Shown in pieces: positions 53,085 through 60,095 of a stretch of DNA of 64,000 bases. The notes under the pieces are model-generated. The model made no database searches. It worked only from the letters and a program-made list of their open reading frames with translations, and was not told the origin of the DNA. Both the position numbers and the translations under genes were made by a program. This DNA is from Candidatus Poribacteria bacterium (GTDB lineage: Bacteria > Poribacteria > WGA-4E > WGA-3G): assembly GCA_965198235.1 (NCBI GenBank), contig OZ240248.1:800001-864000 (forward strand). The letters are read 5' to 3'. How positions within the stretch are numbered: position 1 is the first letter of the stretch; every line of letters starts with the position of its first letter.

Positions 53085-53177
53085 TCTAAAAACGGGACAA
53101 CCATGGATCGTCAAAAAATTGTGATGTTCCTAAAATTTGCTTTAAAAATGGGGAATATGATATAATATAATGAAATG

Positions 53178-53262
53178 ACATTGTGGGGTGCTCTTATCTG
53201 CTTGAGAGCTGAGAAAACACCCATTGAACCTGATCTGGATCATACCAGCGTAGGGAAATATG
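53178..53262 (+). ncRNA. TPP riboswitch
   Basis: GGGGTGC...GCTGAGA...ACCC.TTGAACCTGATCTGGATCATACCAGCGTAGGGAA upstream of thiamine genes. Confidence 0.95.
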
Positions 53263-53492
53263 AAGAAGGGCAATAAAACGCTGTTCCTTCTTAAGCGACT
53301 TTAGCAATTGGGACATAGAAGTTGTACTCTCAATTGTAAGCCTGCAGGCGAGGCACTTAACCCCGCTATATGAGGCACGAAGCCGCTTCCTTTTTGGTGT
53401 TGCCACGGCTGCTAATAGAGCCACTAGCGGACGGGCATGTTTCCCATATCCAAAATGGAAGACGGCTTTTTGTTGTTAAGGAACAGATACCA

Positions 53493-55488: not shown

Positions 55489-55680
55489 TTTTTTAACTAT
55501 TAAGTTTTTGCGCATCGTTCCAAATGTAAAGCAAAGACAAATTTTGCCGCGTGTGGGCAAAATTTCGTTTCACGATGGTTTCTGGTGAAACTTTCGTTCG
55601 CCTCTAAAAAGGTGCGGACGATTCACCAAAACCTGCCCGAAATGAAATGGAGGGCAGCCCAGGCACCCATAATTAGAAAA
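55489..55680. repeat. Family A element, copy 7
   Basis: TTTTTTAACTAT...ATAATTAGAAAA|ATG. Hairpins catcgt/acgatg and ctgccc-gaaatgaaatgga-gggcag. Confidence 0.8.
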
Positions 55681-56820
55681 ATGAAAAATACAAAGATTCT
55701 CATCATCGGTGGTGGTGTGATTGGCCTCGGTATCGGGTGGCAGCTTGCGAAATCGGGTGCCTCCGTCACCATTTATGATCGTGCTGAAGCCGGACGCGCC
55801 GCTTCTTGGGCAGCCGCTGGGATGCTCGCGCCACTCGCCGAGGCACATACCGAAGAACCGGAACTGTTGAAACTGGGTTGCCAAAGTTTAGCACTCTATC
55901 CGCAATGGGTTCGGGAATTAGAGGCGGATGCCGAGATGGACATCGGGTATCGGGTGGAAGGCACTCTGATCATCGGGTTAGAACCTGATGATACACACCA
56001 ACTTCGGCATCTTTACGCCTCACAACAAGATTTAGGGCTGGATGTCGAATGGTTGACCGGACGAGAGGCGCGTGAAATCGAACCCGCCCTTTCGCCGCGC
56101 GCGACTGCAGCTATCCGCTGCGAGAGCGACCATCAGGTCGATAACCGACTGATGGTAAAAGCACTCCAGCGCGCCTATCAGAGATGCGGCGGTGTGCTAC
56201 ATGAAAACACCCCAGTCGAAGGTATTCACGTCGAAAATGGGACCGCGACCGGGATAGATGCCCGAGATAGCGGGAAACATAACGGAGATGTTATCGTGCT
56301 GTCAGCAGGATGTGAATCTGCCCAAATTCAGGGACTTCCAGATGCCATCCGTCCGCCGGTGCGCCCTGTGAAAGGACAGATGTTGGCGTTGCAAATGGAA
56401 GATGGTATCACGGTTAAAAACGTCGTCCGCACCGTCAGAGCAAGGTATCCGATGTCGGTATATTTGGTGCCGCGAACCGATGGCAGGCTCATCGTCGGTG
56501 CGACAAGTGAGGAAATGGGATTTGACACGCGTTTGACTGCTGGCGGTGTGTTTGAGCTACTCCGCGGCGCATGGGAAGCGGTGCCGGGTGTTTATGAACT
56601 TCCGCTTCTGGAAACATGGACAGGTTTACGTCCCGGTAGCAGAGACAATGCCCCCATACTTGGCGAAACGCCCATTGAGAATCTGATATACGCCACGGGA
56701 CATTACCGCAACGGCATCTTACTCACACCCATCACGGCTTATGAGATCTCCAAACTGATTCTGACCGGTGAGACTTCAGAGACAATCGCCCCATTTCAGT
56801 TAGACAGATTTCTGGCGTAA
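55681..56820 (+). CDS. thiO: Glycine oxidase
   Basis: IIGGGVIG, ASWAAAGMLAP, PVKGQ, GLRP, GHYRNGILL; likely start at 55681. Confidence 0.92.
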   Translation: MKNTKILIIGGGVIGLGIGWQLAKSGASVTIYDRAEAGRAASWAAAGMLAPLAEAHTEEPELLKLGCQSLALYPQWVRELEADAEMDIGYRVEGTLIIGLEPDDTHQLRHLYASQQDLGLDVEWLTGREAREIEPALSPRATAAIRCESDHQVDNRLMVKALQRAYQRCGGVLHENTPVEGIHVENGTATGIDARDSGKHNGDVIVLSAGCESAQIQGLPDAIRPPVRPVKGQMLALQMEDGITVKNVVRTVRARYPMSVYLVPRTDGRLIVGATSEEMGFDTRLTAGGVFELLRGAWEAVPGVYELPLLETWTGLRPGSRDNAPILGETPIENLIYATGHYRNGILLTPITAYEISKLILTGETSETIAPFQLDRFLA

Positions 56821-56833
56821 CTGGAGTTAAGTT

Positions 56834-57040
56834 ATGAAGATACACGTTAATAGCGAAGAAAAAACGGTTCGTCCGAATTTAAATGTCCACGATCTGATCA
56901 TCGCTTTAGAAATGGATCCAACGCAGTCGGGCATCGCTGTCGCCGTGGATCGGGAAGTTATCCCGAAAACGGAGTGGCAAGCGACGGAACTTCGCGAGAA
57001 CAGTGAAGTTGAGATTATACGCGCCGTCCAAGGCGGGTAA
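56834..57040 (+). CDS. thiS: Sulfur carrier protein
   Basis: 68 aa, GIAVAVD, ends AVQGG. Confidence 0.92.
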   Translation: MKIHVNSEEKTVRPNLNVHDLIIALEMDPTQSGIAVAVDREVIPKTEWQATELRENSEVEIIRAVQGG

Positions 57041-57246
57041 TGCCCTCACATAACATGCCAGCGGGGAAATGAGGATACAGGTTTAACACTTGATAAAAAG
57101 GGTTTGAAGGTGTTATACTAATCTAAACCATCATTCAGGGATAAACTCCAGCAGAGCACTATGAAGGGTCAAGAGGTTCGTTGGATTCAACGCGCAAATA
57201 GTTTTGACAACAGAAAAAACGGAGCGAAAACCCTATAGTTAAAAAC

Positions 57247-58017
57247 ATGCAAGAATTCAAAATCGCCGACCAGACATACACATCAAGACTACTTATCGGA
57301 ACAGCAGGGTATCCGAATTTCCACATAATGACGGAGTCTATTGCCGCGAGCGGTGCCGAAATTGCGACGGTGTCAATGCGCCGCGTGAAATTTACAGATA
57401 CACCCGGTGAGAATTTGTTCGCGCTTCTACGCGAACGGGGTATGACGATCCTCCCAAACACTGCTGGTTGTTTCACAGCAAAAGACGCGATTCTAACATC
57501 GAACCTCGCGAGAGAGGCACTTGAGACACCGCTCATCAAACTCGAAGTTATTGGAGATGAGGAGACCCTGTTTCCGGATGTAGAGCAGCTGCTCAGTGCT
57601 GCGGAGATACTCGTGAAAGACGGCTTCACTGTGCTTCCGTATTGCAACGACGATCCGATTACCTGTAAGAAATTAGAAGACATTGGCTGTGCGGCAGTGA
57701 TGCCGTTAGGTGCCCCGATAGGCTCAGGAATGGGCATCCGCAATCCGTATAATATTCAGATTATCCGAGATCTTGTGCAAGTGCCGCTCATTGTGGATGC
57801 TGGAGTTGGGACGGCATCGGATGCAGCGATAGCGATGGAGTTAGGCTGTGACGGTGTCCTGCTCAACACAGCAGTAGCGAAAGCACACCGTCCTGTACTG
57901 ATGGCGGAGGCGATGAAAAAAGCAGTCGAAGCGGGTAGAGCGGCGTTTTTAGCTGGACGCATCCCCCGGAAACTTTACGCGACCGCCTCAAGCCCACAGG
58001 ACGGAATGATTGAGTGA
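57247..58017 (+). CDS. thiG: Thiazole synthase
   Basis: [44 protein letters not shown]. Confidence 0.96.
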
Positions 58018-58433
58018 TAGCACCCACTACCTAAAGGTAGGGGCTTCGGTTTCATAGCAACTGCGGTTTTCTCAGAGAGTCTACCGTCTTATTATCGCTC
58101 CACCAGCAGGCAATTCCCCTATATCCTGAAAGAAGTGGATACAGGGCAGATCGTGCGGAAACTTTCACGGCTATCCCTGCCTGCAAAAGAAAAGGGGTGG
58201 TTGAGAGAGAGGTATCTCGGAAACCACCTAAAGGTTGCAGAGAATTACCTTCTACTCTCAACTCCGTAGCAGCGACCAACGTGCAGGATTTCACCTCTGC
58301 TCCGAAACTTACGGACTGCTACCGAAAATGTTTTTAGCAAGGTCTCACTTGCAACTTGTTTGTGCCACCTCTGACAGTGGTGGACAACACCTGCACAAGG
58401 TGTGCAGGGTCAGAGCGTTGTCCAGCAAGTTAC
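58014..58433 (-). ncRNA. Candidate structured ncRNA / non-autonomous IS200/IS605 derivative (orphan omega/reRNA-like)
   Basis: Perfect promoter upstream, many nested helices, 3' end GAAGCCCCTACCTTTAGGTAGTGGGTGCTATCAC resembling IS605/TnpB right ends; no transposase or TnpB ORF. Confidence 0.65.
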
Positions 58434-58438
58434 GTATA

Positions 58439-58467
58439 ATTATACCACATTTTTGACTGAATGTCAA
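58439..58467 (-). promoter_or_regulatory. Consensus sigma70 promoter
   Basis: Minus strand TTGACA-ttcagtcaaaaatgtgg (17 nt)-TATAAT with extended -10 TG. Confidence 0.85.
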
Positions 58468-58829
58468 ATATATTTTGGCGTTTTGGTCCTTTCCAAGAGG
58501 ATAAAATTGATCGGGAAACCGGACTCAAAGCAATAGCAGAAATTCAAAAAGTAAACACCGAGGCAGAAGTAAAGCGTAAGCGCATATCCAAACTGAAAAC
58601 TGACATTTGTAGAAATGGAAAACCACAGATAAGACGTGTCCGAGAGATCGCAGATGACGACCTTTACCGACTTGGATTTGAATTGCTTACAGACGAACTT
58701 GGACTGGGAGGAGTGTCTCGTTTCCTCAGATTATGCGAACCCGGACGTGGTATCTACGCCGTTGACCGGTACAAAAACCCTAAATTAATTGAACAAACCT
58801 GCAAGGAAGAACAGAAACGAGCCTCGTAG
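58461..58829 (+). CDS. Hypothetical protein, possibly a remnant of a toxin-antitoxin-associated gene
   Basis: C-terminal LYRLGFELLTDELGLGGVSRFLR...G.G.Y...R resembles small antitoxin-like proteins. The start overlaps the opposite-strand promoter and is doubtful. Confidence 0.4.
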   Translation: MSNIFWRFGPFQEDKIDRETGLKAIAEIQKVNTEAEVKRKRISKLKTDICRNGKPQIRRVREIADDDLYRLGFELLTDELGLGGVSRFLRLCEPGRGIYAVDRYKNPKLIEQTCKEEQKRAS

Positions 58830-58868
58830 AAGTAGTATCTTCGTCAACTCAAGAATTGGAGTCGGTGT

Positions 58869-60095
58869 GTGAAAAAAAGATCTCACTTTTTCTGGATATG
58901 CCTCATCATTTTTACGCAACTCGTAAGCAGCGTCCTTTTATCCGAGATGCAAAGTGCTTTTGCACAACTCCAGAGCGAATTCGGACAGAGCCTTTTAGAA
59001 AGAAAACCCGAAACCTCTGAAAGCGATCCCGCAGAACTTACAATTAACTCCCACTTCTCTAATACATTTAATAACCACATTGAATTCGGTCTGAGCGTAG
59101 ACCCTTACACCAGTGGTCTTGCGGGTGAGGAAGACTCACAACTCGAAGGCATGATTAACCGCTTCGGTATTAATCTACTCGGGGATTTACCGATAACTAA
59201 CAAACTCCGGCTCAAATTGCAATACGCGCCACAAGTTGAAAACTACACCGGTGCTGACGGAAAACTCAACGAATTCGATGCGTTTAGCGACGTAGTCTTA
59301 ACCGAGCTTAGTTTCCAACCCGTTGCGACTTTACCACCTCTCGTTACCTCCCACCAACTGCAACGTTTCGTGCGAACTTCAAACGTTTATAACAACATCG
59401 ATAGACAATTTGGTCTTCGCTTCGGACGCGTCCTGGAATACAATCTGCGGTTACACCGATTCGACGATGAAGATACGCGAAGAGAGGACTTTCTACTTGT
59501 CGGCTCTACCAGCCATACAATGACTGCACGCTTGCAATTTGGGATTCTTAAACAGATCCTTGGTAAACTGGAATATGGGATAGAAGATAGTAGCTACCAA
59601 ACCAATTTGAATAATCTCATCTTAGGTGTGACAGGACTTGAAGACGATGAACCTCGAAACGATTGGAGACACATCGGCTCTGCAAAACTAATACAGGTAG
59701 CAAAGGATCGACTCGTGTTTCAGGAAGAGATCAACCTATTTCTGAATCGTTCCAATGTCGATTTCTTTAACTTCGTTAGTACTGAAGTAGCAGCGAGTTC
59801 TTTTTACCGACTTGAGACAGGACGGTGGATACGGCTTCGATTCTCCAGACTGTGGGTACAGTTTGAAGGTAGACAGATTCCGGACGAGACTGGATATATA
59901 CCGGAAAACGCACCAAACCGTCGTGACACACAGATAGGTGCGAATGTGCAGTTGAATTGGGAATTTAATCCATATCTAACACTCAACGCCGATTATCAGA
60001 TTAGCCAGAACCACACGAATGAGATAGATCCACTGCTCGATTTTCTCAACTACACACATACCATTGCGACTATCACGCTCCGCGGTCAGTATTGA
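58869..60095 (+). CDS. Hypothetical secreted protein, probable outer-membrane beta-barrel
   Basis: GGAG RBS, signal peptide, amphipathic strands, C-terminal ITLRGQY. Confidence 0.65.
   Translation: MKKRSHFFWICLIIFTQLVSSVLLSEMQSAFAQLQSEFGQSLLERKPETSESDPAELTINSHFSNTFNNHIEFGLSVDPYTSGLAGEEDSQLEGMINRFGINLLGDLPITNKLRLKLQYAPQVENYTGADGKLNEFDAFSDVVLTELSFQPVATLPPLVTSHQLQRFVRTSNVYNNIDRQFGLRFGRVLEYNLRLHRFDDEDTRREDFLLVGSTSHTMTARLQFGILKQILGKLEYGIEDSSYQTNLNNLILGVTGLEDDEPRNDWRHIGSAKLIQVAKDRLVFQEEINLFLNRSNVDFFNFVSTEVAASSFYRLETGRWIRLRFSRLWVQFEGRQIPDETGYIPENAPNRRDTQIGANVQLNWEFNPYLTLNADYQISQNHTNEIDPLLDFLNYTHTIATITLRGQY

Follow-up and report, generated by a model that had tools for sequence, protein, structure and literature searches.

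The window, as we call the 64,000-nt stretch of DNA analyzed here, comes from Candidatus Poribacteria bacterium (contig OZ240248.1, positions 800,001 to 864,000). Near its distal end, the thiazole synthase gene thiG (57247–58017, plus strand; PF05690, E 3e-111) abuts a region of the minus strand, 58014–58500, that contains a promoter followed by a succession of RNA helices. A first-pass annotation had read this region as an orphan guide-RNA gene with a scaffold of ~420 nt. Our analysis makes it highly probable that the region is a protein-less, non-autonomous derivative (PATE) of a TnpB-carrying IS200/IS605 insertion sequence, a judgement that bears jointly on the nature of the element, its history, the parts that it has retained and its proposed working. 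Because other copies carry tnpB together with like ends, the region is, as far as its sequence can tell, both ends of an IS200/IS605 TnpB element without the tnpB gene; tblastn detected no tnpB inside the element or anywhere in the window, the closest match lying ~214 kb away. Read 5′ to 3′ on the minus strand, the element consists of a left-end promoter, a pseudoknotted leader, a hairpin (H4), an A-rich linker, a small domain designated M, a U-rich linker and an omega-RNA scaffold that ends in the right end. The window copy has in addition a copy-specific hairpin of 64 nt, and its scaffold includes the last ~17 codons of tnpB. The IS605-type scaffold unaccompanied by a protein was thus correctly recognized by the annotation, the supposed free-standing gene being a transposon derivative. 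Of the ~420 nt, only the 3′ ~175 nt are homologous to the omega-RNA regions of tnpB-bearing copies; the remainder dissects into a tnpB leader (5′ ~100 nt), a lineage-specific domain (~60 nt) and a copy-specific insert (64 nt).

Right end and related copies

The omega-RNA scaffold and right end (RE) occupy 58188–58014 (minus strand, ~175 nt) and are backed by RE copies in the genome and by compensatory changes. A BLAST search of the own genome found the 3′ ~93–190 nt of the element repeated at 10 other places with 78–93% identity, and in 10 of 12 RE matches the similarity stops at 58014 or 58013. The region ends with GAAGCCCCTACCTTTAGGTAGTGGGTGCTATCAC (...GGGTGCTATCAC) at 58014, and its terminal TCAC (58017–58014) overlaps the TGA stop codon of thiG (58015–58017), as the annotation had claimed. 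Since the similarity between copies stops at this point, the 3′ flank, TCAATCATTCC..., is the predicted guide. The repeated right ends with their differing flanks, which the annotation had proposed to look for, place the guide boundary immediately after TCAC and bear out its guide TCAATCATTCCGTCCTGTGG (57994–58013, minus strand), of which 16–20 nt would be used and which is antisense to the last codons of thiG.

As in IS200/IS605 elements of the TnpB-only kind with IS1341-type ends, the RE carries a subterminal palindrome, GCCCC-N4-TTTA-N4′-GGGT, which takes the form of a terminal hairpin GCCCCTACC-TTTA-GGTAGTGGGT in the window copy and is followed by the final GCTATCAC before the boundary at 58014. 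Its stem covaries among copies (TACC/GGTA, CGCC/GGCG, AACC/GGTT, ACGC/GCGT). Upstream, the similarity to many right ends starts at 58188–58182, and the whole of 58188–58014 has its homologue in the terminal part of full-length elements (tnpB 3′ end plus RE), where scaffold and gene overlap. In the window, the scaffold accordingly begins with what is also a tnpB remnant (58137–58188, minus strand) that corresponds to the last ~17 codons, ..LQAGIAVKVSARSALYP.. (..AGIAVKVSARSALYP); at the corresponding position, the tnpB of a full-length copy in a related genome terminates with ..INILRAGIAVNDSARYA*. An IS200/IS605-type right end bearing a TnpB omega-RNA scaffold is therefore borne out by both the genomic copies and the homology to tnpB 3′ ends.

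A same-strand open reading frame (ORF) of 371–402 aa, ending 133–135 nt before the RE end, is present in 6 of the 14 RE copies examined, and the five such ORFs tested all contain OrfB_IS605 and Cas12f1-like_TNB domains. One of these TnpB proteins aligns over its full length with the ISDra2 TnpB structures (E 1e-43; PDB 8bf8, 8ex9, 8exa, 8h1j) and, with its GADFG, IETLN and DRDINAA motifs, possesses an intact RuvC D/E/D set. The genome also holds intact related TnpB genes that share 74–77% identity with the subfamily whose 3′ end is retained in the window copy. A left end with a TTGAC(A/T)-17-TATAAT promoter lies ~1.1–1.7 kb upstream of the tnpB-bearing right ends. Six matches to PF01797 exceed the cut-off in the genome; one of them (130 bits, contig C1:119838-120191) is a Y1 TnpA that immediately precedes a tnpB with an RE 93% identical to that of the window copy. 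Judging from these sequences, a Y1 (HUH) TnpA fitting these ends is present in the genome, and the search for a cognate TnpB and TnpA proposed at the outset thus ended with both genes, next to matching ends, elsewhere in the genome.

Short copies without tnpB recur as well. The genome contains a second one, hereafter the sister copy (C1:3783590-3784033), that is 81–86% identical to the window copy. Matches were obtained in 37 of the 61 genomes searched, namely the own genome and all 36 other genomes of the genus, and in none of the 24 genomes that represent three other families. A further nine short copies, each taken from a different genome, span 362–395 nt between −10 box and right end, and their 3′ flanks are different, one orthologous pair excepted. 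In total, 11 short copies are found in 10 genomes of the genus, with elements of 362–425 nt between the −10 box and the RE end. Thirty further loci were fetched with M as the query, of which 20 could be parsed; all 20 are short elements with an M-to-right-end distance of 216–337 nt, the same order of parts as in the 11 short copies, and differing flanks. The window element and its relatives hence have IS605-type ends, are too short for a transposase and occupy several sites.

Two other explanations of the region between the ends were rejected. Descent from a decayed tnpB, a possibility that the annotation had asked to have checked, finds no support, as tblastn of six resident TnpB proteins against two short copies gave a best E value of 0.23, the last ~17 codons excepted, and the middle part covaries. 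Nor is the region likely to be coding, the 80-aa minus-strand ORF at 58052–58294 and other small ORFs not being kept in the sister copies owing to indels.

Promoter, leader, M domain and scaffold

The sigma-70-type promoter (58439–58467, minus strand) consists of TTGACA at 58467–58462, a 17-nt spacer and TATAAT at 58444–58439, with a TG at 58447–58446 that makes an extended −10 (TGgTATAAT, 58447–58439). It is as perfect as had been claimed, scoring 12/12 with the TG in a consensus scan that found five promoter-like sites, this one included, in 57200–59200 (shuffle mean 2.0). The same promoter is found in full-length and short copies and is part of the transposon left end (LE); transcription is predicted to start at about 58433–58431 on the minus strand.

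Downstream of it lies a pseudoknotted leader (58433–58351, minus strand), defined from an alignment of 21 leaders (11 short and 10 full-length copies) and a covariance model. It comprises helices P1 (58433-26/58358-51, one G-U), P2 (58424-17/58388-81) and P3 (58408-01/58397-90), hairpin H (58380-77/58368-65), and a crossing pair, 58415-09/58375-69 (CTCTGAC/GTCAGAG), that joins the internal loop between P2 and P3 with the loop of H. This pseudoknot, already noticed from the window alone, is complementary as described, 98% paired over the 21 leaders and marked by double changes in six of its seven pairs. Over the named leader structure, 89.8% of cells are paired as against 61.6% in shuffles (none of 500 shuffles reaches the observed value) and 33–45% when the structure is slid along the alignment; P1 is only 52.8% paired, its 3′ strand having been misaligned by MAFFT. 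Full-length copies have this fold downstream of the promoter, immediately ahead of the tnpB ATG. With the covariance model, 29 leader copies were found in the own genome (for example C1:644443-644547), of which 22 abut the start of a TnpB tblastn match, three lie within ~500 nt of partial matches, two belong to the short copies and two have no TnpB match in the tblastn list. The model also matches 78 of the 121 phylum genomes sampled, with more than 1000 matches in total. Most TnpB elements of this bacterial group thus carry a leader of ~105 nt that separates the promoter from the tnpB start codon. We also observed that the 3′ strand of P1 is duplicated just ahead of the tnpB ATG, where no obvious Shine-Dalgarno sequence was seen. 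E-value scans of the window region, of three full-length copies and of the sister copy assigned the leader to no Rfam family, and a limited literature search found no paper on a tnpB leader pseudoknot.

The leader is followed by hairpin H4 (58352–58337, minus strand; GCAAG-TGAGAC-CTTGC) and an A-rich linker (58336–58324). The position of H4 corresponds to the tnpB ATG in full-length copies. The hairpin is kept in short copies, where its CAAG/CTTG stem becomes AGTG/CACT in some; the same stem was also listed on the plus strand in the site scan.

Next comes M (58323–58266, minus strand), a structured domain of ~60 nt with a closing stem (58323-16/58272-66) and an inner hairpin (58300–58283) of the form GCAG-AGGTGAAATC-CTGC, in which the core GTTTCGGAGCAGAGGTGAAATCCTGCACGTTG is conserved and the loop AGGUGAAA invariant. 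Among the copies examined, M was seen only in protein-less ones, and its two nhmmer matches in the own genome are both short protein-less copies. An M-part query matches 37 of 112 genomes of the family, in three genera and with at most eight copies per genome. The core is the best-conserved stretch of the element, giving matches of 29–37 nt with 88–95% identity in many copies of the three genera. The closing stem varies among 25 distinct copies (GGUAGCAG, GGGCAG, GAGACCG, GGCAGC, GGGUAG) and is paired in most single-sequence folds, which are what its support consists of, MAFFT having set the 3′ strands in differing registers. M (CGUAAGUUUCGG..GCACG, 58283–58313) and the first scaffold hairpin (CGUGAAAGUUUCCGCACG, 58137–58160) share words on the minus strand, and M may be descended from an enlarged duplicate of the latter.

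In the window copy, M is separated from the scaffold by an insert of ~64 nt (58264–58200, minus strand) with a hairpin of its own (58262-55/58207-00). It is present at this place in none of the 10 other aligned short copies, and no other copy of it was found in the genome. Its centre, CAACCTTTAGGTGG, resembles IS605 end palindromes, and the insert may be the trace of a nested or aborted insertion.

The scaffold proper is built from a helix (58184-78/58112-06) that encloses two hairpins, among them 58146-37/58126-17 (one G-U), and from a multi-stem part (58110–58045), all on the minus strand. An RNAalifold analysis of the 11 protein-less copies predicted 78 pairs, 36 of them with compensatory changes, distributed over the leader and every scaffold helix, as expected for the conserved secondary structure of an omega-RNA. 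All helices listed in the annotation are complementary as stated, including the single G-U in each of 58433-26/58358-51 and 58146-37/58126-17, and most are backed by compensatory changes; the helix 58262-55/58207-00, which lies in the copy-specific insert, lacks comparative support. The Rfam comparison suggested at the outset returned only chance rows in an E-value scan of 57900–58600 (SCARNA15, E 2.6; ctRNA_p42d, E 3.9), and a single chance row for three full-length copies and the sister copy. HEARO, IS605-orfB, group I introns and known small ribozymes are thus unsupported by the Rfam scans.

Insertion at thiG and interpretation

The last four nucleotides of the transposon (58014–58017) supply the third base of the final GAG codon of thiG and its TGA stop. 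In relatives thiG ends with GAA TAA or GAG TAA, and the end of the protein, ..GMIE*, is unchanged. None of 29 relatives carries this element at the thiG end; 27 sites are empty and two hold another IS605-type end. The empty sites read ...ATGATTGA followed by ATAA, GTAA or ATAG, so that on the element strand the target TCAATCATTCC... is preceded by TTAT (9), TTAC (5), CTAT (11), CTAC (1) or another motif (1). For the sister copy, the closest two sites without an insertion have the sequence gcTTAC|GAATCCTACCC (gcTTAC|GAATCC in short), no duplication is visible at either junction of that copy, and by eye the left flanks of other short copies end with TTTAT, CTTAT, TTTAC or CTTAC. Insertion 3′ of a short motif without target duplication is thus observed in the lineage, the LE junction of the window copy having been lost, and the guide, taken from the flank directly 3′ of the RE, matches an empty site flanked by this putative target-adjacent motif (TAM). 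The TAM appears from these sites to be of the TTAY type. IS608 inserts 3′ of TTAC, and the window insertion would by analogy fit an IS608-like TTAC rule. In the own genome the target is preceded by TCAC and not by TTAY; no exact match to the 20-nt guide exists elsewhere in the genome, and none of the near matches found there (12 nt shared, or up to 17–18 of 20) follows TTAY.

In the two relatives with another element (G004 and G006), a different IS605-type right end (...GGTCTATCAC) occupies the identical base of the thiG stop region and likewise restores the E* ending of ThiG. Because two other genomes have a different end at the same base, the thiG stop is, by this comparison, a recurrent insertion site. 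At the sister locus, an alignment of the own genome (L002, 1130–1260) with relatives (L125 and L126) revealed that 51 nt present in relatives between two TTAC motifs are absent from the own genome, the left junction of the sister copy lying at the first TTAC and its target after the second. This suggests either a TAM-to-TAM deletion tied to the element or an insertion in the relatives.

At the other extremity, only a remnant of the left end is preserved (58500–58438, minus strand), similarity to other copies beginning at about 58500. Alignment of left ends indicates that the subterminal hairpin and the tip, which other copies possess, are missing from the window copy. The sister copy and copies in other genomes keep the hairpin, and the lineage therefore has the left-end palindrome and cleavage site that the window copy lacks. 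Beyond 58500, towards higher coordinates, the DNA shows homology to a gene of relatives that is unrelated to the transposon; of this gene the window retains a 5′-truncated remnant (58500–58829, plus strand). The corresponding ORF of 122 aa (58461–58829) takes its first 13 codons from the transposon end, matches no Pfam family and is single-copy in the genome. Homologues in three other genomes start ~54 codons earlier, so that the window keeps the gene from about residue 55, and the gene of ~160 aa lies near thiG in other genomes. In three relatives the full gene overlaps the end of an upstream gene with the C-terminus ..FLTTDDGILKRAKRF.., which looks PIN-like. Since the hairpin is missing and the neighbouring gene is 5′-truncated, a single deletion would have removed both the LE tip with its hairpin and the 5′ part of that gene. 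In IS608, TnpA requires both ends; with the left end lost, the window copy is therefore probably immobile and not excised by TnpA. On the thiG side, the thi cluster ends with thiO (55585–56820), thiS (56834–57040) and thiG, and upstream of it lies a TPP (thiamine pyrophosphate) riboswitch (RF00059, 70.5 bits, 53174–53274, plus strand), the only match in an Rfam gathering scan of the whole window.

We propose that an element entered right at the stop codon of thiG, on the 3′ side of a TTAY-type motif, and that the tip and hairpin of its left end were later lost by deletion along with the 5′ part of the neighbouring gene. It would have retained its own strong promoter, the tnpB leader, the M domain and a complete omega-RNA scaffold. 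From this promoter a minus-strand RNA of ~440 nt or more would be made, the 3′ ~175-nt scaffold of which would be bound by TnpB from other copies. TnpB would then trim the RNA, yielding a complex guided by the 16–20 nt after TCAC. Its only cleavable target would be the element-free thiG 3′ end, TTAY followed by TCAATCATTCC... (TCAATCATTCCGTCCT), the target in the own genome being shielded by TCAC in the place of the TAM. With TCAC standing in for the TAM, the RNA could be active only on thiG alleles that lack the element and come in from related strains, and would otherwise be a selfish left-over. Across the lineage, the leader and M would most likely serve the stability or maturation of the RNA.

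Several observations weigh against this proposal. The 5′ half of the scaffold (58188–58115) is found in no full-length copy of the own genome and matches only tnpB elements of other genomes, so the compatibility of the window scaffold with the resident TnpB proteins is assumed. The TAM is a deduction from flanking sequences and unoccupied sites, and 11 of the 27 unoccupied thiG ends have CTAT. Minimum free energies of folding are unusually low on both strands, with similar z-scores (−3.56 on the minus, −3.38 on the plus strand), and folding energy therefore does not pick a strand. IS605 elements move as single-stranded DNA of the same polarity, so some of the conserved structure could have its role in the DNA. 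A copy that cannot move has nothing to gain from restorative homing, and its RNA may be idle. Finally, evidence from RNA libraries is not copy-specific. Four libraries, labelled sponge metagenome, contain parts of the stretch in the form of assembled contigs that record neither strand nor ends. These contigs extend over the right end and portions of the leader and M; at 58013/14 they diverge into the flanks of other copies, and they leave 58205–58271, with the window-specific insert, uncovered. Those that span thiG into the right end extend only 28 nt past the junction, short of the 31 nt required. A contig of another copy reaches ~100 nt upstream of the predicted start, possibly by DNA carry-over or read-through. 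Summed contig depth is in the thousands over 58004–58137 as against 5–57 over thiG, a depth that cannot rank regions given that the right end is a multi-copy repeat in several organisms, and it is therefore no evidence for expression of the window copy. In one contig, from a related strain, 58015 is linked to 58852 through 88 nt of other sequence, and this strain thus lacks the whole 836-nt block, both element and truncated gene.

These points bear directly on the alternatives. The window copy could be an inert fossil, a dead fragment whose structures reflect selection at the level of the family and whose RNA is not usefully transcribed, or is left unloaded or without effect. The missing left-end hairpin, the truncated neighbour, an insert that no sister copy shares between M and scaffold and that no RNA-library contig covers, a scaffold 5′ half common to no resident tnpB element, and the absence of the insertion from all 29 relatives, which makes it young and unconserved, all speak for such a fate. 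We nevertheless hold it to be rather unlikely, since the promoter still scores 12/12 with its extended −10, every scaffold helix is still complementary in the window copy, and the genome contains intact TnpB genes related to the subfamily represented by its tnpB remnant. Less plausible still is that the 5′ 250 nt constitute a separate functional RNA, such as a small ribozyme or a protein-binding RNA, that travels with the transposon ends, the omega-RNA not being the main product. The best-conserved core of M, its covarying stem and invariant loop, the strong support for the leader pseudoknot and the lack of an Rfam match for either part are what one would expect of it. On the other hand, at least 22 of the 29 leader copies in the genome stand ahead of tnpB, so that the leader is not special to short elements, and an intact right end follows M within 216–337 nt in every parsed copy.

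Domestication as a regulator of thiG, through antisense RNA or transcriptional interference, or through a TldR-like action of a TnpB-RNA complex on the thiG end, seems to us very improbable. The promoter does point into thiG with no terminator-like minus-strand site found in 57200–58014, the guide is complementary to the last thiG codons, and the copy is no longer mobile. Against this, no relative has the element at thiG, the target here follows TCAC and lacks a TAM, the resident TnpB proteins retain their D/E/D residues, the window contains no TnpB-like gene, and the thiG stop is a site at which other IS605-type ends have also inserted (G004 and G006). At the level of the lineage, we also considered that the protein-less elements are specialised hyper-parasites of TnpB elements and not passive deletion products, their own M domain with its AGGUGAAA loop and the kept leader allowing omega-RNA to be made, stabilised or matured without tnpB mRNA. 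Taken as a whole this idea is unlikely to hold. Were it true, short elements could win the competition for TnpB against autonomous ones, M could be either a novel small ribozyme or a signal for TnpB loading, and the leader could be an undescribed regulator of TnpB expression.

The interpretation that we favour, a protein-less derivative of a TnpB element, leaves the window copy itself most likely as a stranded remnant. In this one genome the parts of a TnpB system are seen to separate, a guide-RNA unit made of promoter, leader and scaffold persisting and spreading without the nuclease gene. Such a unit depends on TnpB and TnpA made elsewhere and supports a modular, trans-acting view of these elements. 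The element is a natural, compact omega-RNA expression unit that is open to testing, and so are the conserved pseudoknotted leader ahead of most tnpB genes of this group and M, a small conserved RNA domain of protein-less copies. If the leader or M governs omega-RNA production or TnpB loading, it would be relevant to transposon biology and to TnpB-based editing tools.

Comparison with known systems

The biology of ISDra2-type TnpB and its omega-RNA (reRNA) is said to have been described in 2021 by Karvelis and by Altae-Tran. As in that system, the scaffold is encoded by the right end and shares sequence with the 3′ terminus of tnpB, the guide is the RE flank and the target is the empty site beside the TAM; the resident TnpB proteins also align over their full length with ISDra2 TnpB, as mentioned above. 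The window copy differs in having no tnpB in cis and in being a short transcription unit with a predicted structured 5′ part of ~250 nt. The TAM of IS608 is TTAC and that of ISDra2 is TTGAT; the TAM of the present elements appears to be TTAY, resembling that of IS608 and unlike that of ISDra2.

TldR proteins are repressors that resemble TnpB but are nuclease-dead, and their guide RNAs are encoded next to them (Wiegand et al.; PMC10705468; review PMC13565253). The window copy resembles what these sources describe in that it is an immobilised TnpB-type guide RNA beside a host gene. Unlike theirs, it has no adjacent TnpB-like gene, the catalytic residues of the resident TnpB proteins are preserved, a TAM is lacking at the target in this genome, and the locus is not conserved among relatives. 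The adjacent dead TnpB and the conserved promoter position with a TAM that characterize TldR systems are thus lacking here, as illustrated by the 0 of 29 relatives and the TCAC before the target. IStrons are IS605 or IS607 elements with a group I intron in their 5′ part and an omega-RNA at their 3′ end (Zedaveinyte et al.; review PMC13565253). The resemblance lies in a large structured 5′ RNA of an IS605-type element that shares its transcript with the omega-RNA, whereas the present element has no group I intron match in Rfam, no tnpB and a transcript that would start inside the element, and would therefore, unlike an IStron, not be spliced out of host mRNA.

The closest relatives are the PATEs, described as IS605-derived protein-less elements (Dyall-Smith et al. 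2011, PMC3119063) that often encode omega-RNAs needing TnpB from other elements in trans (Meers et al. 2023, PMC10055086). tnpB-less IS605 derivatives whose omega-RNAs require TnpB in trans are therefore a kind that is already published, and the novelty first claimed for the locus was too high. Searches of the literature on Poribacteria and TnpB returned no papers, and those on orphan omega RNA or TnpB miniature inverted-repeat transposable elements nothing relevant; for the leader and the extra domains, there was neither a match in Rfam nor a description in limited searches, supplements excluded. Like the PATEs of these sources, the present elements are too short for a transposase, have IS605-type ends with near-terminal palindromes and no inverted terminal repeats, and would have to be mobilised in trans; the window copy additionally lacks the left-end palindrome. 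In a comparison that covers neither Extended Data Fig. 2e of Meers et al. nor Tables S8/S9 of Dyall-Smith et al., where like internal domains may occur, the lineage is no bare fusion of ends, as it keeps the promoter and the tnpB leader and adds M. What appears to be new, on these searches, is a multi-genus lineage with conserved extra 5′ domains, together with a wide family of tnpB leaders.

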